Notes under the pieces: generated by a model | Told to the model about the DNA's origin: nothing | Seen by the model: the letters and a program-made list of their open reading frames with translations, nothing else | Database searches by the model: none | Shown: one piece after another, positions 18,268 through 46,064 of the stretch | Position numbering within the stretch: position 1 is the first letter of the stretch | Layout of the letters: the number at the start of each line of letters is the position of its first letter | DNA from: a virus | Lineage: Duplodnaviria > Caudoviricetes | Length of the DNA: 64,000 nucleotides | IMG/VR virus record: IMGVR_UViG_3300015050_000842 | Location: 1-64,000 of that record | Reading direction: 5' to 3' (one strand) | Translations under genes and position numbers: made by a program

Positions 18268-19043
18268 TATCTTCTGTAAGGTATTCCTCTCCAATAATTA
18301 GGTTGCATCTGACCCATTCCTGTAATCTTGTTGTAATTACTCATACCTCCGAACCCGCTAAATGGATAGCCACTCATAGGTTGTGTTGATTGTGGATTAG
18401 GCATACCGAATTGAGATAGGTATTGTTGTGAGTTGAAAGGCGACTGTGAAACTCCTGTTGCCATTTGTCCCTGACTATCACCTGACATTTTACCACCGTT
18501 AAGCATAGCCATTTGACCAATTTGAGATAGTTCGCTTAATCCTCCCATTACGTTCTGACGACCTGCACCTTGTAACGCTGCTGCTGCATCAGCTTGTTCG
18601 CCAAATTTTTGGAATTTATCCCATTGTTGTTTCGCTAACTGTTGCTGACCGATTTGACTTCTGTAACCCATAGCTGACCTTTGATTAGCCATTCTTGCAT
18701 TTGCATCTGCTACGTCTAATCCTAAAGTTGCATCGTTTCCTGCTCTTACAATTCCTGCTAAACCTCTTGGATTGCCCATTCTGCCAAACTGACGTAATGC
18801 CGATGCTTGGTTTCTTTGGAAGTTTTGCTGTGCTTGGTTATATTGCTGTTGTGGCAGACCAATCTTTGCCATATTCTCGGCAATAGCTAAGTTCTGATGA
18901 AACTCTTTGGGTATTTCGTAGGTAGGTCTTATGTTTTGCTTGGCAAGTTTATTCCCTTTTGCGCCTTGGAAAATGCCTTGAATGCCTTTCACAACTGACG
19001 GTATCGCTGCTATACCTGCTGATATTAATTGCGGTGGAATCAT
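18267..19043 (-). CDS. Small internal virion/ejection protein
   Basis: Gly/Ala/Gln/Met-rich with an amphipathic N-terminus, typical of podovirus pilot/ejection proteins. Confidence 0.65.
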   Translation of the reverse strand: MIPPQLISAGIAAIPSVVKGIQGIFQGAKGNKLAKQNIRPTYEIPKEFHQNLAIAENMAKIGLPQQQYNQAQQNFQRNQASALRQFGRMGNPRGLAGIVRAGNDATLGLDVADANARMANQRSAMGYRSQIGQQQLAKQQWDKFQKFGEQADAAAALQGAGRQNVMGGLSELSQIGQMAMLNGGKMSGDSQGQMATGVSQSPFNSQQYLSQFGMPNPQSTQPMSGYPFSGFGGMSNYNKITGMGQMQPNYWRGIPYRR

Positions 19044-19061
19044 AATGCTATTCTTTTAAAA

Positions 19062-19069
19062 CAAATGTA
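19062..19069 (-). promoter_or_regulatory. Bacteroidota -7 promoter TACATTTG
   Basis: Exact TAnnTTTG 18 nt upstream of the ATG at 19043. Confidence 0.6.
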
Positions 19070-19083
19070 ACGATATTTACAAC

Positions 19084-19329
19084 TTATTTTTTACCTATTG
19101 ATTGTAACGCTCTGCCACGTTCATCTTCAATCTCTTTTTGTAACTCTACACACCTTACTACAAACAGTAGAAACGGTATCGGGAAACGTGCTATTCTCTC
19201 ATACAACTCAAAAAGTGGTGTCCGTGAGTCGTATAACCTGATACAAGCATCTAAAGTATTCATGTTTATCTTACTTATTGCTTTGTTCTTTTTACACAAA
19301 TCTGCTATGTACTGCCTGTGGTGGTTCAC
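19084..19329 (-). CDS. Hypothetical protein
   Basis: Packed ORF. Confidence 0.55.
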   Translation of the reverse strand: MNHHRQYIADLCKKNKAISKINMNTLDACIRLYDSRTPLFELYERIARFPIPFLLFVVRCVELQKEIEDERGRALQSIGKK

Positions 19330-19332
19330 TTT

Positions 19333-20280
19333 TTACCCTCTTACACCTATAAAACTCTTTTGTGAATTAACTGCAACTGAAAATAACCTCAACTTCGTAG
19401 ACTCCGTAGTAATAATCTCTACTAATATCCAATTGCCCTTTAATACATCACCGTTCACTATTCCACCGACACTATTTATATCTCGCATAAATGAAGCTGA
19501 ATACACGCCCTCTACGCTATTGATTGTTACTGTTGTGACTCCGTCATCCAATGTAGATTTTGTGAAGTCCTCGGCTATTAAATCGCTTACCTGACCTAAA
19601 CTTGTTTCTACTCCTTCCTCTGTGGTTATCATTAGCATATTACTCTGTATCGACATACTCTCAAACGTGCTTACAAAAGTGACGTTCTGATTGAAAGGCA
19701 TATTGATAATCGTATTATACTGCACTCCGTAGAAATTATTACGACTAGCTGAATTATTTTCGTGTAAGTATAACTGTCCCTCTTTAAACGTATAAAGGTT
19801 GATAAACAGTCCAAATCCGCAGTCAGGGTTGTAGGTATAGAATGAACTCCACTTATTGTTTTTCTCGCTATAAACGATATTGTTACGCTGTTTAGCAGTA
19901 GTAACCGTTGCGGTGTTTTTTATGTTGAAGATTGAAACTACGCAGTCCGCAGTAGAATAGAACCGTAGTCGTGGACTTGACCCTGCACAAAGTAAAGTTT
20001 CCTGAAAGAATCCTGTGGTTATGCGTTGCGTTCCTGCCGTTGTACCCATAAATGCCTGTAAGTATAATACCCCTGCACTTCCTGTGATACTTGTTATCGA
20101 ATACGTTATCTCGTAGGTCTGTCCTGCTTCAATCGTATAACCGTTTAAGTAGATACTCCCTGCATTACACGCTTCGTGAGTGGCAATATTATCAGCAAAA
20201 GACCAACCTGTTGTAACAGACTGTGCTACTAAATCAATATCTATTGGCGTATTTTCAAGCGTGGTGAAACTCATACCCAA
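19333..20280 (-). CDS. C-terminal half of the crAss-like tail stabilisation (muzzle) protein, with its own N-terminal beta-sandwich domain
   Basis: IVYSEKNNKWSSFYTYNPD...YTFKEGQLYLHEN...RNNFYG matches the conserved C-terminus of this family. Confidence 0.7.
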   Translation of the reverse strand: MGMSFTTLENTPIDIDLVAQSVTTGWSFADNIATHEACNAGSIYLNGYTIEAGQTYEITYSITSITGSAGVLYLQAFMGTTAGTQRITTGFFQETLLCAGSSPRLRFYSTADCVVSIFNIKNTATVTTAKQRNNIVYSEKNNKWSSFYTYNPDCGFGLFINLYTFKEGQLYLHENNSASRNNFYGVQYNTIINMPFNQNVTFVSTFESMSIQSNMLMITTEEGVETSLGQVSDLIAEDFTKSTLDDGVTTVTINSVEGVYSASFMRDINSVGGIVNGDVLKGNWILVEIITTESTKLRLFSVAVNSQKSFIGVRG

Positions 20281-20286
20281 AGATAG

Positions 20287-21075
20287 TTACATTTTAAAAT
20301 ACTTTTTATAGTAGGTGTAGTTCAGTTTATTGACGTTCTGCATCAGAAAAACAATGTACGGGTTGTATAGTCTTTCAAGTTCAAAGTGATTAATCGGTGT
20401 TAATCTCTCCTTTGCGTAATCCGTAGATTTCTCTTTATGGTTTTCAAAGTTATTAGGGTTGTCTATATCTCCGCTTTGTTTATGTCCTGCAATCTCTTGT
20501 GGGTCTGACCAATTAAAACAGTAACTTGGAACGTAGTTTTTGTTATGTTCATCTAACTCTCCCTCATCTCTTAACTTAGAATACCAACTTAATCCCTCAT
20601 ATCCTGTTAGGTCTGTTCTGAATCCTATTTCTCTTATCCTATCCATTTTAACAATAACACTTGCTTCCATTGTGTTACGTGATAACTCTATTCCGTTGGC
20701 ACTTGCAAATAATGAGTATTCAGGTTTCCACGCATCTTTGCCTGTTTCTTGAATCTCTTTGACTGCTTGTTCAATATGCCACTTGAAATACAAATCGTCA
20801 TCGTCTCCGAGCATGAAATAATCCCCTGTGGCGTGAGTTATAGCATCTGTAAGTATTTCCCCTCTGTTCTTATAATCTTCGTTTGTAGCGTAGTATTTGG
20901 CGTTATTCACTACAATTATAGAGTCATCCTTGAATCCTAACTCAATCGGGTGTTCGGTATCGGTATTAAAGATGATTAGTTCCTTATTTTGGTAGGACTG
21001 TGCCTGATACATGGCTACTATTCTACGTACGCAGTAGAATCTTCTATACGTAGTACAAACGAAGCTGACTTTCAT
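20287..21075 (-). CDS. Glycosyltransferase family 2
   Basis: VSFVCTTYRR...QSYQNKELIIFN...YFMLGDDDDLY (GT-A fold with DxD). Confidence 0.85.
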   Translation of the reverse strand: MKVSFVCTTYRRFYCVRRIVAMYQAQSYQNKELIIFNTDTEHPIELGFKDDSIIVVNNAKYYATNEDYKNRGEILTDAITHATGDYFMLGDDDDLYFKWHIEQAVKEIQETGKDAWKPEYSLFASANGIELSRNTMEASVIVKMDRIREIGFRTDLTGYEGLSWYSKLRDEGELDEHNKNYVPSYCFNWSDPQEIAGHKQSGDIDNPNNFENHKEKSTDYAKERLTPINHFELERLYNPYIVFLMQNVNKLNYTYYKKYFKM

Positions 21076-21684
21076 CTAAATAAATTTATTTGTTTCATTA
21101 CCCCAAGAATACCAACCATTTGAATTTTGACGAGCAAATAATTCTAATTTAATTGCATCAGGGTATAGTTCTTCAATTCTTGACCTTGCATCATTTGGTT
21201 TTCTACTATGCTCTTTGCGTTCTGCTTCAATCAACTGCCTTACATTGTTTGATTTCTTAAAATCTTTCATACTTCCTTTTATGCCAAGCAAACATATTTC
21301 AGTTGATTTTAGAGTATGTGGTGCAAAATTTAAAACTGTTTTACCTGTACTTGTTTTTTTAAGCCAAACAAAAGCAATAGTTTTATACTTAAATCCCCAT
21401 GATTCCATTACTTCAATACCATCTTTTAAGTGACTATCAGTAACCCACATAAAACAAGCACAATTTTTATCAGTAATTTCTTTTACAGGTAGTTCTTTTA
21501 TTTGGTCAATAGTCATTGTAGCATAAATACGTTCAATAGTCCTAAATCTATTTTCTCGTTTATCACTACCTTTTTTTTTATCTCCGTATAACTCCTTACT
21601 TCCATATTGCCAAGCAGGGTCAGCATAAATAACATTGTATTTTCTACCCTTGCAAAACATTAATAAATTATCCGAATCTTCCAT
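21076..21684 (-). CDS. MT-A70 family N6-adenine methyltransferase
   Basis: YNVIYADPAW, FMWVTDSHL..GIEVMESWGFKYKT, EHSRKP, KLELFAR. Confidence 0.9.
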   Translation of the reverse strand: MEDSDNLLMFCKGRKYNVIYADPAWQYGSKELYGDKKKGSDKRENRFRTIERIYATMTIDQIKELPVKEITDKNCACFMWVTDSHLKDGIEVMESWGFKYKTIAFVWLKKTSTGKTVLNFAPHTLKSTEICLLGIKGSMKDFKKSNNVRQLIEAERKEHSRKPNDARSRIEELYPDAIKLELFARQNSNGWYSWGNETNKFI

Positions 21685-21685
21685 T

Positions 21686-22276
21686 TTACCTAAATAATAA
21701 TACTTGGCTATCCATAAAATACAATACTCTGAATCCGTTTTTAATCAGATAAGGTATGCTTAACTTTCCTTTACCGTTCCACTCATCATCAAAAACATCG
21801 TCAATAAGCACAAAACAGTTATCATTTAACTTATTCCAAACTGCCTTTAGTTCGTTCAACTGATGTTCGTGGCATTTACGTACATTTTCTTCATCACCAC
21901 AGTAATCAAAGCTATCTAAGAACAGAAAGTCTATTGGTCTGTGAAAGTTTTTAAGAAACTCGATGCTATCTTGCTTTTTGTAGGTTACGTATTGACTTTC
22001 AGGAACGACTTCTTTGGCTTTAGATAAATGATTGTCGTCTATATCCACTACGTACACACTTGAATTGGTTAGTTTAGCATACCACTCCCAATTTAATGTA
22101 CTCCAACCATCACCGAATCTGCTTTCCTCTGTTGTGTTTCGGATGCAACCCGTTTCAACAATGACTATTGGTCGGCTATACGTGGCTAATAATAGGTTTA
22201 ATACGTTAGTAAAGGACTTATGACGACCTGTTATCGGTCTATCAGAACTGATTTCTTGCCAACTTCCTGAATCCAT
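21686..22276 (-). CDS. Class I SAM-dependent methyltransferase (Methyltransf_24-like); start uncertain
   Basis: IVETGC...VYVVDID...DSIEFL...IDFLFLDS...VLIDD. Confidence 0.8.
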   Translation of the reverse strand: MDSGSWQEISSDRPITGRHKSFTNVLNLLLATYSRPIVIVETGCIRNTTEESRFGDGWSTLNWEWYAKLTNSSVYVVDIDDNHLSKAKEVVPESQYVTYKKQDSIEFLKNFHRPIDFLFLDSFDYCGDEENVRKCHEHQLNELKAVWNKLNDNCFVLIDDVFDDEWNGKGKLSIPYLIKNGFRVLYFMDSQVLLFR

Positions 22277-23169
22277 TGATAGTATTTTTTTGATGCTGTT
22301 TCCGCTTTGATATGTAAAGGTACATTATATGGTAGACAATTCATATAGTCGCACTTATAAAATAATTCACTTTTATTATCAACTACTCCTGCGTTGTGAA
22401 AAATGTTGTACTGATTATACACTTCCTCACTACTTGTACCCCAACTGAAATCAAAATTTTCATGTACCACGGTTTCATATCCACGTTTCCAACCGTTCCA
22501 TAATACCGAAAACATATCGCTACACCAAATTTGCAATTCGTGATAATCGGGCTTTTCTTTTTTGATTTCGTTGTTTAAGTCCGTAATTTCTTTGAACAAT
22601 CGCTCTGAATCTCTTTCACATTCAGCCCAATAATCAGCATCTATTCCTTTCATTAGATACTGCGCCCCGATACAGTTTAATTCATTCGATATAACGAGTT
22701 CTTTGTCTATTCCGACAATATCACACATCGCATCCAATATCTGCTCTCCTTTGCCTCGTATGTACTCCGCAGAGATATAGAATCGTGTGTTTGAACCGTA
22801 CCACTTATTATCAGTCAGCATTTCTTCCGTAATCCAACTTGTAGGTGGCTTAGTAAATATTATATCGCAGTCGTGATAGAAAATAACCTCGTCTTTTAAT
22901 TCAGGGAATCTCTGCCAATGTTGCTTTAAGATATTTGGTCTTATTGAGGAAATGTAGTGTCGTGTTTCTCTCGTATCGTTGTAGAACAAGAATCGTGCAG
23001 GGTAGTGATTAGCTAACTTACTCCACGTATTAGGAATTACACCGTTCTCTTTATAGCATACAATGTCTATTTGATTAGGGTTAATACCCATAGCCATGAA
23101 ATTTTGTAGCATTACTTCCGTTTGCCAAACATAGTAAGCAGTACAAGGTTGTGCAGAAACAAATCTCAT
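22231..23169 (-). CDS. GT96/GT95-like (SERGT1/HPAT-type) protein O-glycosyltransferase
   Basis: MRFVSAQPCTAYYVWQT..F...G and YISSIRP....HW...IFYHDCDIIFTKP parallel the plant SERGT1 (C..YFDWQT; INKP; D.DMI) and HPAT (NRP; DH.F..P) motifs. ATG at 23169 lies 1 nt after the upstream stop. Confidence 0.65.
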   Translation of the reverse strand: MRFVSAQPCTAYYVWQTEVMLQNFMAMGINPNQIDIVCYKENGVIPNTWSKLANHYPARFLFYNDTRETRHYISSIRPNILKQHWQRFPELKDEVIFYHDCDIIFTKPPTSWITEEMLTDNKWYGSNTRFYISAEYIRGKGEQILDAMCDIVGIDKELVISNELNCIGAQYLMKGIDADYWAECERDSERLFKEITDLNNEIKKEKPDYHELQIWCSDMFSVLWNGWKRGYETVVHENFDFSWGTSSEEVYNQYNIFHNAGVVDNKSELFYKCDYMNCLPYNVPLHIKAETASKKYYQWIQEVGKKSVLIDR

Positions 23170-23170
23170 A

Positions 23171-26100
23171 TTACATGAACGATGTCGTTGTTGTACTTGT
23201 GGTTGTCGGTGTTGAAGCACAAACTACAATATTGGTTACATTTCCATTCACATCCACGTTTCCTACATATCTGATTGCTAAATCATCAGCCGTACTGAAA
23301 CTTACAAAGTCACCGTCATTTGGAACTCCTGTCCACTCTCCAACTAATATTGAAGTGTTGAAGAATTGTGTTACTGTCATAGGGTCGTTAGACGCTGCGT
23401 AAACAGTTATCGGTTGTCCGTAAAGCGGAGTCATAACAGCACACGCATCAGGTCTACTTGCAGGGTCACTTCCATACAGTCTGTACTCTCTCGGTGCAGC
23501 AGTAGTGGTAGTTGTTGTTGTCGTAGTCGTTGTGGTCGGCTCTGGCTCGGTTGTCGTAGTCGTAGTCGGTGCTGCGGTTGTGGTCGTAGTTGTAGGTGCA
23601 ATTGTTGTTGTAGTCGTAGGCGCAACCGTTGTAGTGGTTGTGGTTGTTGGTGCAATCGTAGTCGTTGTAGTCGGTGCGATTGTGGTTGTAGTTGTTGTAC
23701 TTGTAGTAGTGGTTGTAGTTGTGGTAGCAACCGCAGTAGTCACAGTATAAGTATCAGATACGCAACCAACAGTTAATGTAGTCGATACAGCAGTACTTGG
23801 ACTTGCAGATGCAGTAACCCTTACCTCTACATAATCATTATTTACAACTGTTCCTGCAACACTTGTCCAACTGCCTGTTCCGTTCACACGATATTCACCA
23901 CCGCCTCCTGAAATACTAATTGCAGTCGGAATGTCAATGTCGATAATCAATACTTGATTGGAAGTATAAACCTCTCCCCATTGTGCATCAGTAACGTCTA
24001 AGAAGTTAATTACGTTAGGGCAGTCATCCCCTGCAACAATAGTTAAACAAACTCTTTTTGTCGTTAAAACACCACCACTCGGAGTAAAGCTAAACGTGAA
24101 GTTGTCTGTGCCTGTTTCCCCTGTATTTGGAGTGTAGGTCGCAATCCCTGTTCCTGTATTGTACGTAGCAACCCCCTTTGTTCCTTGCGCCGTTAAGCTA
24201 ATATCAGCAGGCGGAATAACATACGTATCGTCTAACTGCCAATTCAATTCATTGAACGGAGTATCAAACAGTATATCACCCTCTGTTTCGGTAGTTAATA
24301 GATACTCGTTGTAGAAAATATCGTAGTAGCCGATAATCTTTTTCCCTGCCTCATAAGCCTCTTGAAGCACTCTCTTGAAGTATTTGCTGTTCTTGCCTGA
24401 AATCGTGTCTACACCGTCTAATCCTGCCCGTATAGGCTCACTTCTGAAAGGGTCAACAAAGTAAATGTTGTTATTCCACTCTGCATAGCTTTCTTTGGCG
24501 TTACCCATTCCGATATTCTTACCGTTGTACCGTACACTATTGAATATTTGAGTGCTTAACGCATATTGTTCTGCCGAAGATTGGTCTTCCACGATTGTTT
24601 GGAATACAGGAACATAACCTACCTTTAACTCCTGCAACACCACTAAGACGTTGTTTCTTTGGCGTATCTTTCTAATCCAACCGTAATTGGATGAAGTTTC
24701 TCCGTCACCATCACCATAAATACTTTCAGGATAAAATCGTGTCAATCCATTTACCAATGAATCACGTTGGAATACCTCTGAATATCTGATACTCGCTTTA
24801 CGTTCTATTCTCCCTCTCTCATCGTTGTACGTTCTTGGCTTTCCATAAGAAGCATAAGCACTTGCATAGAAGTCGCTAAAGTTAAAGTCCTCAACAACTA
24901 AGCTATCCAACTGATTCAGGTCAACACCGTTTGCCATTTCACGGCTTTTCATGTACACATCACCTGCACGAATATCTCCCGAAGTAACGGTATGTACTCC
25001 GTTAGTTATTGGATAGGAAATGCCTACCTCATACATTAACTGTTCGGTGTACTCTGTTGTGCCACTAACTGTTTCTGTTCTCTGTTTAGGCGTGTAAATC
25101 TCTAATAATACGTTATTGTTCTCTAATGTAGCCTGTGATACACCTGACGGAATATTGACCTTTAGAATGTAGTCGATTATTGTCGGGTCTACCGTGTCAA
25201 TAACAATCTCAAAATCCACAACCTCCACATCAATCTTATCCAACCATACTTTCGGTGAAGTGTTATCCGCTAATATGTAATACACAAACGTACACCTATC
25301 TCCTGCTGAATATTCATAACTCAACACGCTTGACGGATAGGCTTCGTTGAATTTCTTTAACGGATTGATGTTAAACGCAAAATAAGTTGAAGTGGTAAGT
25401 GCTGCGTCTAAAGTCCCCTGAACCCACAATGTCGTTTGATGCGTGTTGTTTAACGATAATCCCCAACCGTAATACGCTGCGTCAGCAGGTGGGTCGTGGT
25501 ATATCTCCCAATGAATCATGGATGCTAAACCCTGTATTTGAGAATACGAAGGAGTTTTTACCACATAGTTTTCATCAGTACAAATAGGGAAGTATCTACC
25601 CCACTTATCCTTATACCACAAAAATGTCTGATAGCTTGAATTGGATTTTAATGCTGACCTTGATATTGATGCACCTGTTCCTGCCAAAGCTAAGTCAACA
25701 TTGACTAATAATGCTTTCTCTGTTCCACCGTCAGGGGTTTCGCTACTTCTTCTTGTAGTGAACTGTAAAACCCAATAGAGTGAATCGAATAAATACACCG
25801 TGGTAGGATAAGGCATTGTCGCAGCGAAAGCACGTACCGCAGCCTCCGTATCTCCGTCTTGTCCTGCCGTAACAGTATAAGTCATTGTTTCGTAAACAAC
25901 ATCGGCTAAATTGGAGGTTACTATCGTGAACTCATCACCTGTCTGTGCTGTCCCTGCATAGTAAATTCTTACCTTACGATACGATGTACCGCTTACTCTT
26001 TCTTGTTGCCAATTCTCTACTCGTAATGCTACCGTAGGGTCAGGTGGAACAACGGCTATGTCAGGGTTGTAATTCACTACCTGAACTAACACATCTGTTT

Positions 26101-27160
26101 CAGGTCTGTCATACCCCTCTGTAATTCCGCCTAATGCTAACTGATTGCCATTAATATTCTCTAAAGTTTCACACTTTAAAGGAACGTGGTCGTAATCTAA
26201 GTCGGTTTCTAAGGGGTCGACATTGCTATATAGTCCGTCATTATAGAAACAGAAATAGTACGTATTCGTAGTCGGGTCATACGCCTCTCTAATCTCTGCA
26301 TCTAAATCTATTGCAGTATCAGTAATTGTTAATATGTAATCCCTGTCAACGGTTAGTATATCAAAGAAGTCAAGTGTTCCGATTCGTGCTACTGCCTTTA
26401 TTGTTTGCACTCGGTCTGTGCCTATATCCAATCCTACTATCAATGTATTGTTTGATGTTACGCTTGTTCCAACGGAAGGAGTAGATTCGTTTGTCGGAAC
26501 TTCTCGCTTACTCATTATAGAATATACGCTGTACTCATTGTCTAAGTAGACGTACTGATACATGAATTGGAATAGGCTACCTTTTAATAGGTTTACAGAC
26601 CTTGTATCGTCACTTCCGAACTCTACCGTAGGCACAATCATTGGTTGCGCTTTGATAATTAAAAAGTCATTTTCGGTAAGTACATCGTAACCACCTGCCT
26701 CTAATCGTGTTAGATTAGTCATACAAGGCTGATAGTTTCCGTCAGTCCACGCTAATAGGTAGTCGTTGATTAACTTTATATCGTTGACGTAGTATTCAGG
26801 TGTTAAAGGAAGTATGTTTTCGTTATCAGAGTCAGTCAAATTCTCGAATACATTGGTTTGAGTATTCGCATCGTAATCTAACTTAGCGATAACGTGATAG
26901 AGTTGCGAGTTGAAAATAAAAGAATAGGCGGTACGAGTGATTTCAAAACCTGCTGCCCCGATTGCTTTGTTTATTCCTGTCGGGAGTGTGTTTGCTATTA
27001 ATGAATTGCTTTCAGGGTTGGTTGCAAGACCTTCTTCGCCATCCTCTGTGCCATTTACCCTTAAATTATACGAATCTACAAAATCTGACTGCCCGACAAA
27101 CTCAATGGCATCGTCAAGATTAAGACCTCCGTTATTAAATATTTTAATGTTTTCAGGCAT
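23171..27160 (-). CDS. Tail stabilisation (muzzle) protein, N-terminal half, extended by Ig/cadherin-like domains and a mucin-like poly-Thr stalk
   Basis: GGLNLDD..N start; VLQELKVGY..YFVDPFR..IR..GLD..IS...GYYD..YNEYLLT core; then a Big/cadherin-like domain, a second beta domain, the Thr tract and a Cys-flanked tip domain. Confidence 0.8.
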   Translation of the reverse strand: MPENIKIFNNGGLNLDDAIEFVGQSDFVDSYNLRVNGTEDGEEGLATNPESNSLIANTLPTGINKAIGAAGFEITRTAYSFIFNSQLYHVIAKLDYDANTQTNVFENLTDSDNENILPLTPEYYVNDIKLINDYLLAWTDGNYQPCMTNLTRLEAGGYDVLTENDFLIIKAQPMIVPTVEFGSDDTRSVNLLKGSLFQFMYQYVYLDNEYSVYSIMSKREVPTNESTPSVGTSVTSNNTLIVGLDIGTDRVQTIKAVARIGTLDFFDILTVDRDYILTITDTAIDLDAEIREAYDPTTNTYYFCFYNDGLYSNVDPLETDLDYDHVPLKCETLENINGNQLALGGITEGYDRPETDVLVQVVNYNPDIAVVPPDPTVALRVENWQQERVSGTSYRKVRIYYAGTAQTGDEFTIVTSNLADVVYETMTYTVTAGQDGDTEAAVRAFAATMPYPTTVYLFDSLYWVLQFTTRRSSETPDGGTEKALLVNVDLALAGTGASISRSALKSNSSYQTFLWYKDKWGRYFPICTDENYVVKTPSYSQIQGLASMIHWEIYHDPPADAAYYGWGLSLNNTHQTTLWVQGTLDAALTTSTYFAFNINPLKKFNEAYPSSVLSYEYSAGDRCTFVYYILADNTSPKVWLDKIDVEVVDFEIVIDTVDPTIIDYILKVNIPSGVSQATLENNNVLLEIYTPKQRTETVSGTTEYTEQLMYEVGISYPITNGVHTVTSGDIRAGDVYMKSREMANGVDLNQLDSLVVEDFNFSDFYASAYASYGKPRTYNDERGRIERKASIRYSEVFQRDSLVNGLTRFYPESIYGDGDGETSSNYGWIRKIRQRNNVLVVLQELKVGYVPVFQTIVEDQSSAEQYALSTQIFNSVRYNGKNIGMGNAKESYAEWNNNIYFVDPFRSEPIRAGLDGVDTISGKNSKYFKRVLQEAYEAGKKIIGYYDIFYNEYLLTTETEGDILFDTPFNELNWQLDDTYVIPPADISLTAQGTKGVATYNTGTGIATYTPNTGETGTDNFTFSFTPSGGVLTTKRVCLTIVAGDDCPNVINFLDVTDAQWGEVYTSNQVLIIDIDIPTAISISGGGGEYRVNGTGSWTSVAGTVVNNDYVEVRVTASASPSTAVSTTLTVGCVSDTYTVTTAVATTTTTTTTSTTTTTTIAPTTTTTIAPTTTTTTTVAPTTTTTIAPTTTTTTAAPTTTTTTEPEPTTTTTTTTTTTTAAPREYRLYGSDPASRPDACAVMTPLYGQPITVYAASNDPMTVTQFFNTSILVGEWTGVPNDGDFVSFSTADDLAIRYVGNVDVNGNVTNIVVCASTPTTTSTTTTSFM
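23490..23730 (-). repeat. Mucin-like (I/V/A)AP-T5-7 repeat region
   Basis: About 75 aa of mostly Thr punctuated by AP/EP; Thr codons are mixed (ACT/ACA/ACC/ACG). Confidence 0.95.
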
Positions 27161-27165
27161 ATTGG

Positions 27166-27936
27166 TCAGGCTTTTCCAACAAGTTTTGTTCCAATTCTGG
27201 CGGCGTCAGCAAGCTCATTAAGCACAAACTGATTAATGCGCATAGCTGCTAATCTTCTCTCTCTGTAATACTCTATCTTAAACATTCTCACATCACCCTG
27301 ACTGAATTTCTTACGTAAATCAATTGCATTTTTCCACCTTAAAAAAGCCATAAATGCTTGTTCTGCCTTAGAATCAATTTCGTAGTCATCTGCGTTTTCG
27401 TCATATCCGTCACTCATATACTCCAATACTAATTGACTGTAATGGTTGTGAATATCTAAGATGATTAGTCCGTTGCTTTCATCTACCTTATACGAGCCTA
27501 CTTTTGGTGTTCCGCTATCTGCACCAAACAGATTATAAGACGTTCCGTTATAATAGTAATTGTAGTAGTAATTCGGATAGGTGTCTTGGTCAAAGAACGG
27601 TGTTAATGTATTCAATACAGGCGCACCCTCTTTCCGTAGACTTTGAGTAGTGTAAATACTGTTCCACGTAGATAGTTGGTCGTTACGTTTATAAGTAACC
27701 ACTTCACCCTTATCGTTCAATACTCCGATTTTAGAGTAGGATATATAGTCTTGTGGCAGATTAACTGTTTTGTTCGCATTTACGTCTAATACAACGGTCT
27801 TTATGTTCCCTGTTATGTCAAGGTTAAACTCCCTGCATCCCTGCACTCCGATATTGTATAAACGCCTGAATCCATGAACAGACTCATCGGCACTATTCAG
27901 GAATTGCGATACTAATTTTTTTAATGCTATCTTCAT
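27166..27936 (-). CDS. Tail ring/tubular protein
   Basis: V.LPQDYISYSKIG motif; follows the ring genes in crAss-like order. Confidence 0.65.
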   Translation of the reverse strand: MKIALKKLVSQFLNSADESVHGFRRLYNIGVQGCREFNLDITGNIKTVVLDVNANKTVNLPQDYISYSKIGVLNDKGEVVTYKRNDQLSTWNSIYTTQSLRKEGAPVLNTLTPFFDQDTYPNYYYNYYYNGTSYNLFGADSGTPKVGSYKVDESNGLIILDIHNHYSQLVLEYMSDGYDENADDYEIDSKAEQAFMAFLRWKNAIDLRKKFSQGDVRMFKIEYYRERRLAAMRINQFVLNELADAARIGTKLVGKA

Positions 27937-38951: not shown

Positions 38952-39559
38952 ACTTGCTCAAATTTAGCTGCGATTTCGTTATGAAACAACTTGATGTAAT
39001 CTCTACCATTGTAATTCAGGTAGTATTGGTGGTCGTCATCCGTACATACTATATCTCCAACACTTATCTCCTTGTACTTTCTATTCTTTGGAACGTGCAG
39101 TATTTTGATTTTTAATGTTTCCTTTTTCTTGTCTGCCGAAGTGAGGTATATTCCGCTATCGGTCTTGACTGCATCTGTGTAGACTTGTTCCCCTAAGTAC
39201 ATATCGTCTGCCATTTCGATTTCTTCCCCTACAATCTTAAAAAATACGTGGTAAGGAAATACTAAGGAATATTCTTGTTCGTCTATCTGAATGACTTCTT
39301 CGGCTTCCTTTGCCATGTAATGAAAGAATAACCTATCACCTTTTTTATATCCTAAGTTTGGTTGGTCAAAGCATACTGTTCCGATTTGTGGATGCACCTC
39401 TTTCATGTTGAAGTTTGTCATCCACTTAGTTGTTTCACCGCCATAATCTCCGTGTTCGGTGTGTTCCCACATATCGGGGCGTATTAATTCAACACCACCT
39501 ACTTCAATGATTTTGTTGTGCCTATCGTCAAACTGTACTATGAGTCTATTGCTATACAT
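38948..39559 (-). CDS. Tandem GroES/Cpn10-like co-chaperonin
   Basis: Two GroES-like units, e.g. KTDSGIYLT...ISVGDIV...NGRDYIKL. Confidence 0.65.
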   Translation of the reverse strand: MYSNRLIVQFDDRHNKIIEVGGVELIRPDMWEHTEHGDYGGETTKWMTNFNMKEVHPQIGTVCFDQPNLGYKKGDRLFFHYMAKEAEEVIQIDEQEYSLVFPYHVFFKIVGEEIEMADDMYLGEQVYTDAVKTDSGIYLTSADKKKETLKIKILHVPKNRKYKEISVGDIVCTDDDHQYYLNYNGRDYIKLFHNEIAAKFEQV

Positions 39560-40538
39560 CGAGTAATCTATCTATTCTTAATTGGTTTATCTTGCTTAGT
39601 AAACGGTTATTCAAAATCCAATCCCACGCTTCATTATTCATTATTTCAAGTGAGTTAAACTCATCTTCATACGCTTTAAACGTATCTTTTACTCCTTCTG
39701 AAATATCAGCAACAAATCCATGCTTAAATTCGGGCAGAGTAGCGTTACCGAAGAACGCTGAACCTGCATACGTGGCTTCGAGTAATGAGATATTACTTTT
39801 ACAGACATTAAACACATTGGTAATCAATGGGAAGAACGCAATATTCGCATTTAGTTCGTGATACTCTTTATAAAACTGCATTAAGGTTACAGGGTCGGTG
39901 TATTCGTGATTCTTGCCTGTTCTTTCCTCGATGTGCTTAAAACGACTACCCTGAAACCTGAAAGTCCAATCCTGATTGTCGTTAATCATATAAACTATGT
40001 CGTTGATATTTTGGTACATATCCGCTTCGTGAGATGCGCCACCCCTATAAGACATAATCTTTGTCTTGTGGTTAAACGGTTTCTTATTCTCTATCGGAAA
40101 TACTGTATCATTGTGGCAATTTGGGATTATGTGAATGTTTTTGTTGTACGGCTTGTATATGTGCTTAATCGCAGGTGTTGTTACCCAAACTTCATCAGCT
40201 AAATGAATAGCCATTTTGATATTTGACTTCTGTTCTGCTAAGGTTATACTTGCGTTGTTGTGGAAAGGTACGTTCAATAGGTCATCGTCATAGTCTAAGA
40301 TTACACGAATGTTCATATCCTTTGCTAACTTGATTAACTCGATATGAGGTTCGTGTGTCGGTCTTTGGAATATAAATGTATCAAAACCAATTAAACTGTT
40401 CCATCCGTATTCATTCTTTGAATTGTATAGGTTGGTTACGCTTATGTCAGGACTGTTTAGAAAGTTAAGTACACCGTTTGTCCTGTAAAATGCCGAAGCA
40501 TTGGTTTCAAGCATACTTAAATAACACACTTTTTTCAT
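39552..40538 (-). CDS. Glycosyltransferase (GT-B/GT4-like)
   Basis: AFYRTNG, FIFQRP, ILDYDDDLL, ADEVWVTTP, YRGG.SH, FN.CKSNISLLE. Confidence 0.8.
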   Translation of the reverse strand: MKKVCYLSMLETNASAFYRTNGVLNFLNSPDISVTNLYNSKNEYGWNSLIGFDTFIFQRPTHEPHIELIKLAKDMNIRVILDYDDDLLNVPFHNNASITLAEQKSNIKMAIHLADEVWVTTPAIKHIYKPYNKNIHIIPNCHNDTVFPIENKKPFNHKTKIMSYRGGASHEADMYQNINDIVYMINDNQDWTFRFQGSRFKHIEERTGKNHEYTDPVTLMQFYKEYHELNANIAFFPLITNVFNVCKSNISLLEATYAGSAFFGNATLPEFKHGFVADISEGVKDTFKAYEDEFNSLEIMNNEAWDWILNNRLLSKINQLRIDRLLDV

Positions 40539-40675
40539 TTATGTAGTTTTATTGAACGATTTTTATATAGTTGTTTCAAGTCCTTATATGCGTTATTTGT
40601 GAAACGATTATCCTCAAAGTTATCGACTTGATAAATTGTTATCTTTCGTAGTTTACGAGCCTTCTTACCATTCAT
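40535..40675 (-). CDS. Small basic hypothetical protein (MNGKKARKLRK)
   Basis: ATG at 40675 just after the upstream stop. Confidence 0.45.
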   Translation of the reverse strand: MNGKKARKLRKITIYQVDNFEDNRFTNNAYKDLKQLYKNRSIKLHK

Positions 40676-40676
40676 G

Positions 40677-41060
40677 CTACTTAAATAAAATCCAATATGT
40701 TGTGAATAATTGTACGTAGTGTAATACTTGGTCAAACCCTACGCTAATAAAGAAGTTATGGCTATTCCCCGATGCCCAAAGTTTACTATTTAGTCTGCTT
40801 GTGTAGTAATCTGTTATCGTGTGAGCAACAAAAGTTATTAACAGGAATAAAGATATATTTTCAATAATCCCATGTACTGAAAACATAGAATACCAACTAT
40901 ATAGAGCACCAACGATAGCAAAAATATAAGTGTAAGTAAATGTATGACCCAATAAATCATCCCAATTCTTACTTTTGCCTTTAGCTTGTTTATCAGTTTG
41001 TAACACAAAGTCTGCAAACCAATGAATAATTAGTATTGCGAATATTTCTGTTAAATTCAT
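40677..41060 (-). CDS. DUF3307 family membrane protein
   Basis: HWFADFVLQT...H...HTITD...GFDQVLH pattern with TM segments. Confidence 0.8.
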   Translation of the reverse strand: MNLTEIFAILIIHWFADFVLQTDKQAKGKSKNWDDLLGHTFTYTYIFAIVGALYSWYSMFSVHGIIENISLFLLITFVAHTITDYYTSRLNSKLWASGNSHNFFISVGFDQVLHYVQLFTTYWILFK

Positions 41061-41061
41061 A

Positions 41062-43485
41062 TCATTTATTTTTATAAACCCAAACTAATTCATCCAAATA
41101 CTTTCTATCCATATCAAATCCAAAGATTTCGTCTACGGCTTCAATAACTCCCTCGTGCGCCTCGCAATAGTCGTGACCTGATATTATGCCGTTCTTTTTA
41201 ATTTTAGGCAACCACGCCCTTATATCGGAGTAAACCCGACTTTTTACATGGTCAGCATCCAAAAATAGAAAATCAATGCTTTCATCTTCAAACTGTTCTG
41301 CACTTAATCCACTATCGCCTTTAATAACATTTACTTTGTCGATTACCGATGCTAAGTTTCTTCTGAATACAACCTCGATGTTTTCATTTGTCTGTTCGTC
41401 ATTAAACGTAAAGCTATCGACTGCATATACATTGAAACTCTTGTTTGCACGTAGCATTTCTACCATGAAGTAAGCAAGACTTTTGCCCTCATAGACACCT
41501 ACTTCTACCACATTACTTCCGTTTGGTAAGGATTGAACAATGTCTTTGTAGAATCTTGGAAATGTAAACCACCCTGTTATTGGTTCGTAGAAGTGCTTTA
41601 TTTCATCTAATGACTTTTTCAGGTATTGCTTACATAGCTTAATAGCCATAGTTGGTCGTACTAATCCAAATTGTGCCTGATACGGTATCATTCGGTATAA
41701 GTGTAATGCACAGTAGAAGTACGCTTTTCTGATAACCAACTCTCTGTCCTGTCCTAAAATCTTCGTGTAGAAGTCTATAATCATATCGAACTCTAACTCT
41801 GAATATTCGGGTGCGGTTTCTGAATCCCAAAACTCATACTTAGTCAAGTACGACTGCATCAGCTTTCCTAAGTCCTGTTCAACTACTCCTGCCTTATTGT
41901 CGTTGTCGAAGTCTATCATCTTAACAGAGAACTTATTAACCAATACATTTTCGTAGGTTAAATCTCCGTGATAGTTTTGATAAGAAATGGTCGGTGACAA
42001 ATCGTGAATACGTACTGACGTTCTTAAAATAGTCAATATCTCATCTGTTTCATTACCTAATCCGATTTCATGTAGCTTATCTTTCTTTGAAAATATCTTT
42101 TCTGAAAGGTAATCGTGTAACCAATACGAAATAATCAAAGACTTATTCCCACTATCATACCACTTGCTTAGGCAATCAAACAACTCATTGAGTGCTAAAA
42201 CTCTGTCCTGAATTGATAGTAAATGAAGTGGTTTGTAACCGCTTAACTTCTCCATTACGTAGCTATCCTCTTTAAACTCACCTATCTTTGGAACTAAGTA
42301 GTGTAGTTTAGAGTCTGATACGGCTTTCATAGATTCGTACTGTGCCTTGAATTTTACTTTCTGATACTCTGTGGCATCTTTCGGTAAATACTTCAACACA
42401 ATGTCGTTATGATAGGATAGCTTCGCTTCACTATGACCTAAAGCAATATCCTTAATACCCTCATCCCTCTTTACTTCGTGTGCCATAGCCATAGGTTTTT
42501 CTGAATACGGTTTTTTGTCGTTTATTAAATATCTTGTCCCAGAGGGTAAACCCATAACCAAATGTTCATATCGTACTCCTGCCTTGCGTAGCATATACTC
42601 CAATTCAGGTCGGAACTGTTCATCCCTGCTTGTTGTTAGTACGATAAAACAATTGTTGTCTTTCCGCCACTCGTCTATCTTTTCTCTTGCACCCTCTAAA
42701 AACTCAATATCTTTAGTGTAGTCAGGGATATTCTCGTGTTTGATTACTGTTCCATCTAAGTCGCAGAATATTGTGGATGCTTTCTTTTCCTCATACATAT
42801 TCTTTAACCGTTCAGGGTCGCCAAAGAACTCTGCTTCTTTTACCTCTACTGCCTTAGTCTTATGATACTGAATATTAATTCCGTCTGCTATTATATCTGA
42901 TATATACTTCATATCATGGGTTGGTTTGAATAGCTTTGAAAAATAGTAGCACCCAATAACTCCATAGCTTAATGTTTTCTCAACCATATTTGGCTTAGAC
43001 TTTTCTGAAATAGACCTGACCATATTATTATCGTCAACCCTAACTACACTCCACTTGTTTATTTCAGATTCACTAATGTTATATACAGGAACAATGCAAT
43101 TAAATTTACCCTTATCAATATCCTTAAATATACCATCCACATTCAATGAGTGGTCGCAGTCACAGAATATTACATCGTTCAATACGTCTTGATGCTCGAA
43201 TAAGGCTGATATGGTTTCAACAGGACTTTTAGTTGGTTGTATCGGTACAATTTGCAGGTTTGCAGGAATGTTAAAGCTACGGAATCTTTCTTCTACGTTA
43301 AACTGAATCAAGTGGTCTTTCCTGACAATAAATACAAAATCTTTTATTCTGTCCTTGTGCTTTAAGAATGGTTGCACGGCAAGTTCAATGAATGTTTTAT
43401 CAAAAATCTTGAAAAACGGCTTAAATTTCCCTCCAAACCGTTGAGATTCTCCTGCCATTGGAAAGACTACTGTTACTTTATTCAT
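41062..43485 (-). CDS. Four-domain fusion: sugar nucleotidyltransferase + HAD phosphatase + APH-like kinase + SAM methyltransferase
   Basis: PMAGESQRF..KP (NTP_transferase); FCDLDGT...TTSR...IND (HAD); HGDLTYEN..MIDFD (kinase); VEVGVYEGKS...LDADH...GHDY (Methyltransf_24). Confidence 0.85.
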   Translation of the reverse strand: MNKVTVVFPMAGESQRFGGKFKPFFKIFDKTFIELAVQPFLKHKDRIKDFVFIVRKDHLIQFNVEERFRSFNIPANLQIVPIQPTKSPVETISALFEHQDVLNDVIFCDCDHSLNVDGIFKDIDKGKFNCIVPVYNISESEINKWSVVRVDDNNMVRSISEKSKPNMVEKTLSYGVIGCYYFSKLFKPTHDMKYISDIIADGINIQYHKTKAVEVKEAEFFGDPERLKNMYEEKKASTIFCDLDGTVIKHENIPDYTKDIEFLEGAREKIDEWRKDNNCFIVLTTSRDEQFRPELEYMLRKAGVRYEHLVMGLPSGTRYLINDKKPYSEKPMAMAHEVKRDEGIKDIALGHSEAKLSYHNDIVLKYLPKDATEYQKVKFKAQYESMKAVSDSKLHYLVPKIGEFKEDSYVMEKLSGYKPLHLLSIQDRVLALNELFDCLSKWYDSGNKSLIISYWLHDYLSEKIFSKKDKLHEIGLGNETDEILTILRTSVRIHDLSPTISYQNYHGDLTYENVLVNKFSVKMIDFDNDNKAGVVEQDLGKLMQSYLTKYEFWDSETAPEYSELEFDMIIDFYTKILGQDRELVIRKAYFYCALHLYRMIPYQAQFGLVRPTMAIKLCKQYLKKSLDEIKHFYEPITGWFTFPRFYKDIVQSLPNGSNVVEVGVYEGKSLAYFMVEMLRANKSFNVYAVDSFTFNDEQTNENIEVVFRRNLASVIDKVNVIKGDSGLSAEQFEDESIDFLFLDADHVKSRVYSDIRAWLPKIKKNGIISGHDYCEAHEGVIEAVDEIFGFDMDRKYLDELVWVYKNK

Positions 43486-44186
43486 AACGTGAAGTTATTA
43501 GCATCGTTAGCAAACATCTGTACCGTTTCAATACTATAATCCCTTAAATTCTTGTCTTTCATCTTTAGCTTTTCCAAGATTGGTTGCGGTATAGTGATAA
43601 TGTCGCAGTACTCTTTTGCTAAGTGAATATCGCCAAGACTTCTTACTCCAGCCCAAAGTAACTTGATATTACCCCTGTCCGTTCCTATCATATCGCTAAT
43701 CTTTTTGATTATCGTGTTTGGAGATATGCCTGTATCAGCTATTCTGCCTGAAAAAACAGATAATACTACATCGTAGTCTTTAGTTACACCTAAGTCTAAC
43801 AACTCTCTGACCTGCTGTGGAGTAAATATTGCCGTTACATTTATTTTGATTCCATCGTCAAGCAAGAATTTGATTACTTCGGCACAAGACTCTCCTTTGT
43901 CGTTTACTATCGGAATCTTAACATATACATTGTGACCCCAACTACTGATTTCTAATGCCTGAAATACAATGTCCTTTAGGTCGTTGGTCAAGACCTGAAT
44001 CGAAACAGGATAACCGTTACTATTGTCAATTATCGCATTGCAGTAATCTTTATAAACAATTGGTAAATATTGTTTCACCAAAGAGGGATTGCAAGTGAAG
44101 CCTGTAACGTCAAAATCTGTAAGTACGTGGTTAATGTACTCTTTGGTTGGCTCAATGCCATCTGCGTAAATTTCTAATTCTCTCAT
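43482..44186 (-). CDS. tal: Transaldolase (TalC/FSA-like small family)
   Basis: YADG, GFTCNPSL, NVYVKIP (Schiff-base Lys), INVTAIF, SVFSGRIADTG, DIITIP. Confidence 0.9.
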   Translation of the reverse strand: MRELEIYADGIEPTKEYINHVLTDFDVTGFTCNPSLVKQYLPIVYKDYCNAIIDNSNGYPVSIQVLTNDLKDIVFQALEISSWGHNVYVKIPIVNDKGESCAEVIKFLLDDGIKINVTAIFTPQQVRELLDLGVTKDYDVVLSVFSGRIADTGISPNTIIKKISDMIGTDRGNIKLLWAGVRSLGDIHLAKEYCDIITIPQPILEKLKMKDKNLRDYSIETVQMFANDANNFTL

Positions 44187-44686
44187 TTCGTTAAGTGTAT
44201 TACTCCTTGTTCGTTTGGATTAAAGTTACTCATGTAGTATTGTTCGATTGTTTTAAAACCCCACCTTTGATAGTTGTCTTTTATTATAGCTAACTTATCT
44301 GCATCGTGGTATTCAATAGCCATTTCCTCTATTCCGTTAAACAATTCTATTGGTATCTCATTCAGTAGGCTTTCAAATCCCTCTATGTCGCATTTTACGG
44401 CTTGTGGTTGAACTGTCATTAGATAGTCAGCCATTTGTTCAGGCGTGTTGATTTCGTCTGTTATAATCGTTAATTTCGGGTCAGGCACATTCTCTGCGTA
44501 CCAAATACGTTCATTATCCCACATTTCAATACCTACAACCTTACTTGCACCCTGACTTAAGAAGTATTCAGGAGTCGTTGGTCTAATTTCCCACATCCTT
44601 CCTGCCCCAAAATCCAAGACAACTCTATCCTTTACGTTTAACATTGACCAATGATGAATTGGATTTTCGCTTTCTATGCTTTTCAT
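44183..44686 (-). CDS. FkbM-like SAM methyltransferase
   Basis: VVLDFGAG...VVGIE...VKCDIEGFE...IEYH. Confidence 0.7.
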   Translation of the reverse strand: MKSIESENPIHHWSMLNVKDRVVLDFGAGRMWEIRPTTPEYFLSQGASKVVGIEMWDNERIWYAENVPDPKLTIITDEINTPEQMADYLMTVQPQAVKCDIEGFESLLNEIPIELFNGIEEMAIEYHDADKLAIIKDNYQRWGFKTIEQYYMSNFNPNEQGVIHLTK

Positions 44687-45264
44687 CTAAGTATTGTGTT
44701 TGTTATGTTTAATCTATTGATAACTACGCCCTGTTTTTTTAGGTTTTCGGTTACGTAAAATTCAGTATGAAAAATTTTGCCATCTCTGAATAGGTTTCCA
44801 TGTTCCAAATATACGCTATAATACTTTTTCATTACCTTGTAACTGCCGAAAGCAAATTGGTCATTAACACCTCCACAATGGTCGTTACCGTAAGGAATGT
44901 AAATGTTTGTGTCGTCAATATTGTAGTCATCAAAGTTTATCTTTCCGCTTAATACTATGTCTGTTCTTGACTTTACATACACATCGTAGTTGTGTGGTAC
45001 TAAACAGAATCCTATGAATAGATTGTGCCACGCCTGTAAAGTGTTATCTGTGCAGGTGACAGGGTTTTTATTGCTATTGTACCAATCCAACGGTTCGGTG
45101 TAGTACGTTCCTTGTATCTTGTTAAACTGCTTGTACGGTGTTTCAGGTTCATCGTATGTGTAGAAATAGGTTTCTGTGGTCGGGGTGTAGAAATTATCAA
45201 TTTGATTCTGTCTACAAGCGTTCCACGTTCTTAGATGCCCTGAATATAATACCGCTACGTTCAT
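44683..45264 (-). CDS. Glycan-modification/glycosyltransferase-like protein
   Basis: VAVLYSGHLRT...YDVYVKSRTDI...NDQFAFGS pattern recurrent in glycan clusters. Confidence 0.55.
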   Translation of the reverse strand: MNVAVLYSGHLRTWNACRQNQIDNFYTPTTETYFYTYDEPETPYKQFNKIQGTYYTEPLDWYNSNKNPVTCTDNTLQAWHNLFIGFCLVPHNYDVYVKSRTDIVLSGKINFDDYNIDDTNIYIPYGNDHCGGVNDQFAFGSYKVMKKYYSVYLEHGNLFRDGKIFHTEFYVTENLKKQGVVINRLNITNTILR

Positions 45265-46064
45265 GCCTCAAACGGGTTATAGTAAATATCTCGTACTCCT
45301 TTTTTGTAGTCCTCTGCTATCTCTGAAAACTCGGCTATTGTTCTTCCTGCTTCTCTGATTTTCTCTTTAACGTGTTCTCCCTCTCCGTTATCTAAGTGAA
45401 CAATAGGAATTGTTGGTAGGAAAGCATTTTCAAATCCTGCAAGTTCGGAACGTAGTGACATCAATGAATCATCCCAAGCGTAAGTGGAAATTTGCCACAT
45501 GTAGCCGACTTTATCTAATAGTTTAGGGCTAAACATAGTGCAAGTGCCTATAATATCTTTGGAGATTTCTAAAACAACCCAACTATCACCTCTTTCGTGA
45601 GGTAAAAACTTTAATTGTGTTCTGTATGCAGGATTTTCATGTTCAGGGTGTTGAATTAACTCTGTTCGCTTTAATCCTAATATTCCTAAGTTCGTGTATC
45701 TCTCAAAACATTCTTCCATTTCCTCTACCCAACCTACCCTACCTATCGTTACGTCTGAATCAATTTTAATTACGTATTGATTAGGTTTTCTTGTACGTAT
45801 GCCTAAGTTTACTGCCTCTGCCGTACCTAAGTTCTTACCGTTATACGATATAGTTAGGTGGTTTGAAGGGAACATTGATTCAAAATGATATGTAAACTCT
45901 TTATAGAAATCAATCATTTCTTGACAAGAGCCGTTATCGCTAATGAAAAGTTCGCTTGGCAAAAAATCTACGGTGTCAAGTAAACCAAACAAAGTCTTTT
46001 TTGCGTACTCTAACCGATTATTTGTTTCGGTTGCGTATGACGCCATAATCACTAAAGCACACAT
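45261..46064 (-). CDS. Glycosyltransferase family 2
   Basis: FISDNGS, NLGTAEAVN, VIKIDSDV, IIGTCTMF, WDD. Confidence 0.85.
   Translation of the reverse strand: MCALVIMASYATETNNRLEYAKKTLFGLLDTVDFLPSELFISDNGSCQEMIDFYKEFTYHFESMFPSNHLTISYNGKNLGTAEAVNLGIRTRKPNQYVIKIDSDVTIGRVGWVEEMEECFERYTNLGILGLKRTELIQHPEHENPAYRTQLKFLPHERGDSWVVLEISKDIIGTCTMFSPKLLDKVGYMWQISTYAWDDSLMSLRSELAGFENAFLPTIPIVHLDNGEGEHVKEKIREAGRTIAEFSEIAEDYKKGVRDIYYNPFEA

Follow-up and report, generated by a model that had tools for sequence, protein, structure and literature searches.

Two phage genes predicted to encode complementary pieces of one tail muzzle, with a putative stalk-modifying cassette between them

In crAss-type tails, the muzzle acts as gatekeeper and makes the contact with the host surface. 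Here we analyse a muzzle that appears to be encoded in two pieces in a 64,000-nucleotide stretch of viral DNA (positions 1 to 64,000 of IMG/VR record IMGVR_UViG_3300015050_000842, Caudoviricetes; hereafter the window), which is part of a complete, 73,893 bp podophage genome with direct terminal repeats. The pieces are the products of two open reading frames (ORFs), which we call MuzN (23171-27160, 1329 amino acids) and MuzC (19333-20280, 315 amino acids when read from a TTG, although the likely true start is an ATG at 20274, which gives the N-terminus MSFTT and matches the homologs). In our reading, to which we assign a probability of about 0.75, the two proteins form a two-subunit muzzle, the underlying split at a single beta-hairpin is ancestral and recurrent, and a cassette of genes that most likely glycosylates a stalk on MuzN was inserted between the halves later.

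MuzN and MuzC match consecutive parts of one-chain homologs

Cellulophaga phage phi38:1 gp097, a single structural protein of 1324 amino acids, matches MuzN over residues 1-362 and 666-955 and then MuzC from residue 130 (E 6e-13 and 4e-12 for the two matches). At the junction, gp097 residues 1061-1072 correspond to MuzN 944-955 and gp097 from residue 1075 to MuzC from residue 130, with only about 3 residues between the two matching blocks. A search for longer relatives of MuzC yielded 15 metagenomic proteins of 1024-1433 amino acids, each with the MuzN core followed by the MuzC core, which brings the fused, one-chain homologs to 16, all with one copy of each block, consecutive and non-overlapping. 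This two-block pattern in intact homologs is well beyond chance. As judged from these 16 sequences, MuzN and MuzC are predicted to be complementary pieces of one muzzle/nozzle protein, that is, a two-subunit nozzle in which two polypeptides supply complementary parts of one propeller. An alignment of MuzC residues 70-129 to the phi38:1 protein overlaps the region already matched by MuzN and was treated as a spurious extension.

A first-pass annotation, made from the letters of the window and a list of its ORFs, had placed a break in a conserved muzzle core after GYYDIFYNEYLLT at about 24290-24330, and had proposed that the C-terminal block resumes about 4 kb downstream in a separate ORF. Both observations stand. 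The motif lies at 24293-24331 (MuzN residues 944-956), and the conserved MuzC block, YSEKNNKWSSFY...YTFKEGQLYLH...NNFYG (YSEKNNKW...), starts 4.4 kb away at residue 137, around window position 19872, behind an N-terminal domain of some 130 residues. The alignment of both ORFs to intact homologs that the annotation had proposed as a check accordingly gives consecutive matches in the 16 one-chain proteins, with MuzC at their C-termini.

The position of the junction relative to known domains can be read from the fused proteins P0122, P0124 (the latter from the sister group of the window family) and P0135, which pass the gathering score of PF25731 (crAss_MUZ) with 43-87 bits. In all three, PF25731 extends about 25-45 residues beyond the junction and is then followed by PF25729 (crAss_MUZ_C), so that the split falls inside the muzzle domain and not between domains. 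Since the region of the phicrAss001 muzzle gp44 beyond residue 1021 consists of propeller blades and the C-terminal part (Bayfield et al. 2023, PMC10172136), the cut would lie within the propeller, at a tight hairpin. The same hairpin is a permissive site for insertion and fission, as the first-pass annotation had supposed in calling it an insertion-tolerant loop: the fused proteins P0128 and P0129 are 81-98% identical and are separated by a 74-residue insert exactly at the hairpin, and across fused forms the junction loop varies from about 3 to 115 residues, as estimated from the ends of the matches. In the split family both new chain ends are decorated with extra domains, again in agreement with the annotation, namely Ig/cadherin-like domains and a stalk on MuzN and a beta-sandwich on MuzC. 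In three shorter proteins of 288-481 amino acids (P0163, P0241 and P0267), the MuzC core follows immediately on the final 120-190 residues of the MuzN core; these proteins may be truncated gene calls or splits elsewhere.

The predicted fold of MuzN and the domains at the cut ends

An AlphaFold2 (AF2) model of MuzN residues 1-975, built from 19 sequences, has a predicted local distance difference test score (pLDDT) of 77, and the structure that it matches best is that of the phicrAss001 muzzle, gp44 (7qol_P; Foldseek E 4e-18). With VIA-align, MuzN residues 56-960 superimpose on residues 62-1200 of the 1354-residue gp44 chain with Z 22.1 and a root-mean-square deviation of 6.4 over 631 residues, while P22 gp10 (8eap_D, chain residues 47-384 of 471) and the Sf6 gp8 nozzle give Z values of 18.2 and 16.8, respectively. 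The model thus shows the crassvirus muzzle fold, a ring-joining domain and a nozzle-type beta-propeller with large inserted distal domains, and with it the propeller found in podophage nozzles of the P22 gp10, Sf6 gp8 and T7 gp12 type. Because the alignment of MuzN stops about 150 residues short of the end of gp44 and MuzC supplies the crAss_MUZ_C domain, MuzC would bring the missing end. PF25729 is present in 23 of 28 members of the MuzC family (best E 5e-9).

The propeller of the muzzle gp44 (PDB 7QOK/7QOL; PF25731 and PF25729; PMC10172136) resembles the T7 nozzle and carries large inserted domains, and the MuzC family shares the C-terminal Pfam domain of gp44. In contrast to gp44, a single polypeptide of about 1360 residues, the muzzle of the window is broken at the hairpin that corresponds to approximately gp44 residue 1200, with extra domains on both new ends. 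Sequence identity between gp44 and MuzN is about 12%. When the PDB was searched by sequence and by profile with MuzN, MuzC and the family alignments, the phicrAss001 muzzle did not come up; fold comparison alone recovered it. In crAss muzzles, length variation was placed by Bayfield et al. (PMC10172136) in the crass and IG2 domains.

Past two conserved Ig (immunoglobulin)/cadherin-like domains, the MuzN family ends in a hypervariable tail. A profile of the Ig/cadherin-like region matches the RTX cadherin-like repeat 36gk_A (E 8.5e-4), and the tails of related MuzN proteins carry Big_9, Cadherin_4/5 and DUF5977 domains according to Pfam. On the other side of the cut, the N-terminal sandwich of MuzC is conserved and modelled with confidence; it belongs to no Pfam family, and its Foldseek matches are to carbohydrate-binding modules (CBMs) of families 4, 16 and 22, weakly, at E about 1e-2. 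Further domains are attached to MuzC in some relatives: P0137 has a right-handed Beta_helix domain fused ahead of a complete MuzC, and P0154 consists of MuzC followed by four DUF5977 repeats. Large proteins (P0191, P0207, P0214, P0271 and others) contain the same kind of sandwich in tandem arrays of up to 9 copies, and one of these proteins also carries Laminin_G_3 domains.

The split is old and arose at least twice

Related loci were collected by an alignment-based scan of viral contigs in IMG/VR, a scan with a single protein having given no match. At 19 of the 21 loci in which both genes are visible, MuzN (1250-1726 amino acids) ends at most about 45 nucleotides before the start of MuzC or overlaps it, and the gap is free of genes. 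All three relative reading frames of MuzN and MuzC occur among these loci, together with many start/stop overlaps, and this variation makes read-through or frameshifting unlikely as a general rule. Standalone, full-length MuzC proteins of 300-315 amino acids form more than 150 clusters, down to 42% identity and in many cases on contigs of 70-76 kb; such proteins of about 300 amino acids, annotated as 'hypothetical', would be the missing end of the muzzle and can be re-annotated on that basis.

Split halves also occur outside the window family. In Cellulophaga phage phi13:2 (Pachyviridae), gp120 and gp121 are adjacent and correspond to the two halves, and in the metagenomic podovirus MW202828 the halves are separated by one small gene annotated as 'putative glycosidase'. 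The C pieces of both match PF25729 (E 6e-20 and 1e-20, 72-74 bits). They share the hairpin split with the window family but differ in belonging to a separate clan, sister to the fused phi38:1 type, and in having C pieces that start at the strand, without the CBM-like domain. At the gp120/gp121 junction (L002:8117-8125) the two genes are in one frame, with a stop and one sense codon between them, and read-through of the stop would fuse the chain.

We built a maximum-likelihood tree with IQ-TREE from concatenated or fused sequences (17 rows, 1056 columns) under the simple model LG+G4. The window family is placed beside the fused proteins P0123/P0124 (support 98/97), and phi13:2 with MW202828 beside the fused phi38:1/P0135 (support 100/100). 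A tree constrained to hold all split forms in a single clan is worse by 309 log-likelihood units, with a p value of 2.8e-28 in the approximately unbiased (AU) test. As far as these sequences indicate, the state changed, by fission at the same hairpin, at least twice. Within the phage family of the window the split is old and found throughout, with two genes as the ancestral state.

These results do not bear out the part of the first-pass annotation that took the split to be peculiar to this genome and linked it to the capture of enzymes between the new ends, since relatives that lack the cassette, both at the 19 loci above and in phi13:2, also encode the C piece separately. Our literature search found no paper describing a split muzzle in Bacteroidota phages.

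A cassette that tracks a poly-threonine stalk

In the window, the MuzN and MuzC ORFs are 2.9 kb apart, and the gap holds four ORFs, c1 to c4 (Table 1). This cassette is found only in the closest relatives of the window, in versions of two, three and four genes. L028 (92% MuzC identity) has c1-c2-c4 in an otherwise collinear arrangement that lacks c3, with c2 and c4 overlapping directly (ATGA), which identifies c3 as an extra insertion and a separate add-on. L005 (74% MuzC identity) has c1 and an unrelated ORF of 301 amino acids; L004 and L032 (77% MuzC identity) lack the cassette, and their MuzN tail is longer and of another kind. In L029, L030 and L033, as in L028, c4 adjoins MuzC. Upstream of its full c4 homolog, L033 (700-2000) retains a 21-residue remnant of the c4 N-terminus together with fragments of c2, which suggests rearrangement within the cassette.

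The distribution of the cassette follows the MuzN tail. When 20 MuzN sequences were scored for a poly-threonine (poly-Thr) stalk, defined as at least 70% Thr over 40 residues, it was found in 3 (the window, L028 and L005), exactly the loci with c1, and was absent from the other 17. The swapped unit appears to be the distal tail of MuzN plus the cassette. The cassette is a recent, lineage-specific insertion in the gap between MuzN and MuzC that goes with the Thr stalk and not with the earlier split, and the tie between cassette and fission drawn in the first-pass annotation has to be given up: the cassette tracks the poly-Thr tail and is limited to the nearest clade.

An independent test of c1, which belongs to phrog_4417, came from homologs in ten unrelated phages, those of Enterococcus, Lactobacillus, Lacticaseibacillus, Lactococcus, Staphylococcus, Clostridium and Chryseobacterium. 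In eight of the ten the c1 homolog lies immediately downstream of a gene for a poly-Thr or Thr-rich virion protein, and in a ninth within 1.3 kb of one, against a background of 8 of 623 ORFs with such a Thr tract. The tract is at or near the C-terminus in seven of the eight and internal in one. Because of this adjacency in 9 of 10 other phages, c1 is likely to act on poly-Thr tails, as far as gene neighbourhoods can indicate. That the action is glycosylation is likewise likely, with a family 2 glycosyltransferase (c4) and a methyltransferase alongside; c4 and c1 follow MuzN, a virion protein with a Thr-rich extension, in the arrangement of a virion O-glycosylation module. A weak language-model lead points towards HPAT-type peptide glycosyltransferases, in that the ESM Atlas gives the HPAT family for 10% of one cluster neighbouring c1. 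In a literature search we found no paper on phrog_4417 in connection with poly-Thr tails. The loci in Gram-positive and Chryseobacterium phages at which the c1 homolog directly follows its partner are L035:4345-5909, L036:4649-5879, L037:4341-5909, L042:3238-4852, L039:3603-4888, L040:2882-4879, L043:3614-5101 and L034:4709-6906, and the partners there are major tail, capsid or small structural proteins, with a T10 tract in the major tail protein of Lactococcus phage 1706 and T14 in Staphylococcus phage PT94.

Proposed model and alternative explanations

In the model we propose, MuzN would account for the ring-joining region, the greater part of the beta-propeller and a large distal domain. 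At one beta-hairpin its chain would exit the propeller and extend outward through two Ig-like domains and a poly-Thr stalk to a small tip domain. MuzC would open with the CBM-like sandwich, after which would come the second strand of the hairpin, the propeller strands that MuzN lacks and the crAss_MUZ_C domain; the MuzC strand would sit beside the MuzN GYYDIFYNEYLL strand, and the propeller would be completed in trans. At the free hairpin ends, accessory domains would be attached and exchanged, and c1, c2 and c4, which travel with the poly-Thr stalk, would most likely O-glycosylate the stalk and methylate the glycan.

A precedent for two proteins in one nozzle is the solved structure of Pseudomonas podophage A1002, in which the gp39 nozzle-rope and the gp42 nozzle-base jointly rebuild the nozzle propeller by strand complementation (PMC13730344). 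By comparison of descriptions, the likeness lies in the use of two proteins for one nozzle, one of which in A1002 bears long fibre-docking extensions (PMC13730344). A1002 differs in that it belongs to another phage group, partitions propeller and platform differently and does not encode the two proteins as adjacent halves in canonical order. With respect to the cassette, glycosyltransferase genes in the structural region of mycobacteriophages reportedly modify terminal extensions of virion proteins (Freeman et al. 2023). That system differs in enzymes and hosts; here the presumed target is the poly-Thr stalk of a tail tip, and the key family, phrog_4417, is uncharacterised.

Several observations weigh against the model. 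The window's own MuzN has no match to PF25731 at E <= 0.01, and its MuzC matches PF25729 at E 0.0056 with 17.5 bits, below the gathering score of 27. Folded alone, MuzC gives a poor model of the core (pLDDT < 50) that is usable for the N-terminal domain only, and the proposed fit of MuzC to the end of gp44 comes from Pfam and the fused homologs, not from structure. A first FastTree tree had already been viewed when the split group tested by AU was defined. As regards the cassette, neither Pfam nor NCBIfam recognises a glycosyltransferase domain in c1, and the MT-A70 enzyme c3 is ill-suited to a role in glycosylation. Because the three genomes with the cassette are closely related, the link between cassette and poly-Thr within the family may reflect a single event; the sister of the window in the tree is the cassette-less L004.

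Given that MuzC has a well-folded N-terminal domain of its own, and that the Beta_helix fusion in P0137 resembles a tail-spike anchor, MuzC could be an independent tail protein, a paralog or adaptor, that shares only the C-terminal domain with a MuzN that is a complete muzzle by itself. We regard this as highly unlikely, because a second C block is absent from MuzN, whose match to the gp44 chain stops near residue 1200, because the fused homologs hold one copy of each block in order, and because the two genes are adjacent in related loci. It is also very improbable that the split is non-functional, whether as a pseudogene or an assembly error, given that both ORFs are full-length and conserved across many independent assemblies. 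The same low standing goes to rejoining of the halves by read-through, frameshifting or splicing: the in-frame phi13:2 junction speaks for it, and L008, L010 and L018 also share a frame, but the relative frame varies elsewhere with many start/stop overlaps, the halves in the window are 2.9 kb of coding genes apart, and a scan of 18500-27500 with Rfam revealed no intron, nor any other RNA family.

The remaining alternatives concern the cassette. Its position exactly between the pieces, and the extra domains on both ends, would be expected if the fission were recent, confined to this genome and coupled to the acquisition of modifying enzymes in the space between the new ends. To this account we give next to no weight, since the split occurs without the cassette in most related loci and in phi13:2, the cassette is confined to the nearest clade with two to four genes, and cassette-less split relatives, which should show remnants if all had lost it, show none at the IMG/VR loci scanned. 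Harder to set aside, and in our judgement unlikely rather than negligible, is the view that an unrelated moron or defence-evasion island settled in a handy gap, in which case the cassette would target DNA or the host surface instead of MuzN. MT-A70 enzymes are typical of anti-restriction DNA methylation, the GC content of the cassette is below that of its flanks (0.35 vs 0.40), and a second sugar-enzyme cluster in the genome could serve host-surface or DNA modification. What tells against an unrelated island is the co-occurrence of c1 with poly-Thr tails both in the family and in nine of the ten distant phages, and the exchange of MuzN tail and cassette together between close relatives. We retain the two-subunit muzzle with an old hairpin split and a later, probably stalk-directed cassette.

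If this reading holds, a two-subunit muzzle is a family-wide feature, the propeller tolerates a cut at one defined hairpin, and accessory domains gather at the cut ends. This would provide a concrete rule for reading the tail-tip modules of uncultured Bacteroidota phages and would mark a natural domain-swapping site, while the cassette result offers a testable and widespread pairing of an uncharacterised enzyme family with virion poly-Thr tails. A broader proposal, which we put forward tentatively and at somewhat less than even odds, joins the two parts. According to it, the hairpin is a recurrent break point that has been cut at least twice in Bacteroidota phages and whose ends receive interchangeable appendages for host recognition (Ig stalks, CBM-like modules, beta-helix enzymes, and mucin-like stalks that are glycosylated and come with their own cassette), and phrog_4417 is an undescribed family of poly-Thr-directed protein O-glycosyltransferases, common to Bacteroidota and Firmicutes phages and always beside the gene for its substrate.

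Gene features and genome setting

The region from 16.9 to 33 kb is encoded throughout on the minus strand, in the order MuzN ORF, the four short ORFs of the cassette, MuzC ORF, and then small proteins and a giant protein of 2470 amino acids. Packing on this strand is tight, with 1 nucleotide between the MuzN stop and the c1 start and 12 nucleotides between the c4 stop and the MuzC start. The features discussed above are collected in Table 1.

Table 1. Features of the split muzzle locus (window coordinates).
Feature	Coordinates	Strand	Evidence
MuzN, predicted N-terminal piece of muzzle/nozzle protein, 1329 amino acids: core, two Ig/cadherin-like domains, poly-Thr stalk, tip domain	23171..27160	-	phrog_14478 E 4e-47
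Last conserved MuzN core strand GYYDIFYNEYLLT, residues 944-956; putative first strand of split hairpin	24293..24331	-	aligns to phi38:1 gp097 1061-1072
Two Ig/cadherin-like domains after core, residues ~976-1142, family-conserved	23735..24235	-	alignment conserved to T1142
Poly-threonine, mucin-like MuzN stalk	23490..23730	-	Thr fraction 0.75 over 40 amino acids
C-terminal MuzN tip domain, ~105 amino acids, no assigned fold	23174..23489	-	translation; no Pfam match
MuzC N-terminal beta-sandwich, ~130 amino acids, CBM-like	19891..20274	-	AF2 pLDDT 77-90 for residues 23-125
MuzC core: putative hairpin partner strand, last propeller strands, crAss_MUZ_C domain and C-terminal tail	19333..19890	-	PF25729, fused homologs
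c1, phrog_4417, 312 amino acids from ATG at 23169, candidate protein O-glycosyltransferase on poly-Thr	22231..23169	-	phrog_4417 E 4.6e-61
c2, class I S-adenosylmethionine (SAM) methyltransferase (Methyltransf_24)	21686..22276	-	PF13578 E 2.8e-8; also in L028
c3, MT-A70 family (N6-adenine type) methyltransferase	21076..21684	-	PF05063 E 7.5e-32; phrog_359 DNA methyltransferase
c4, family 2 glycosyltransferase	20287..21075	-	PF00535 E 6.4e-6; weak NCBIfam PglI-like match

Scans for promoters and terminators gave chance-level results only. Among the neighbouring structural genes, Pfam returned only a weak SU10_adaptor match, and membership in Crassvirales proper is not established. Farther along the same strand, the window carries a second sugar-related cluster (39552-46064), which encodes a family 2 glycosyltransferase (GT2), a transaldolase, a DUF3307 protein and a protein of 807 amino acids that ends in a Methyltransf_24/O-methyltransferase domain; this cluster could supply or extend the chemistry of the cassette.

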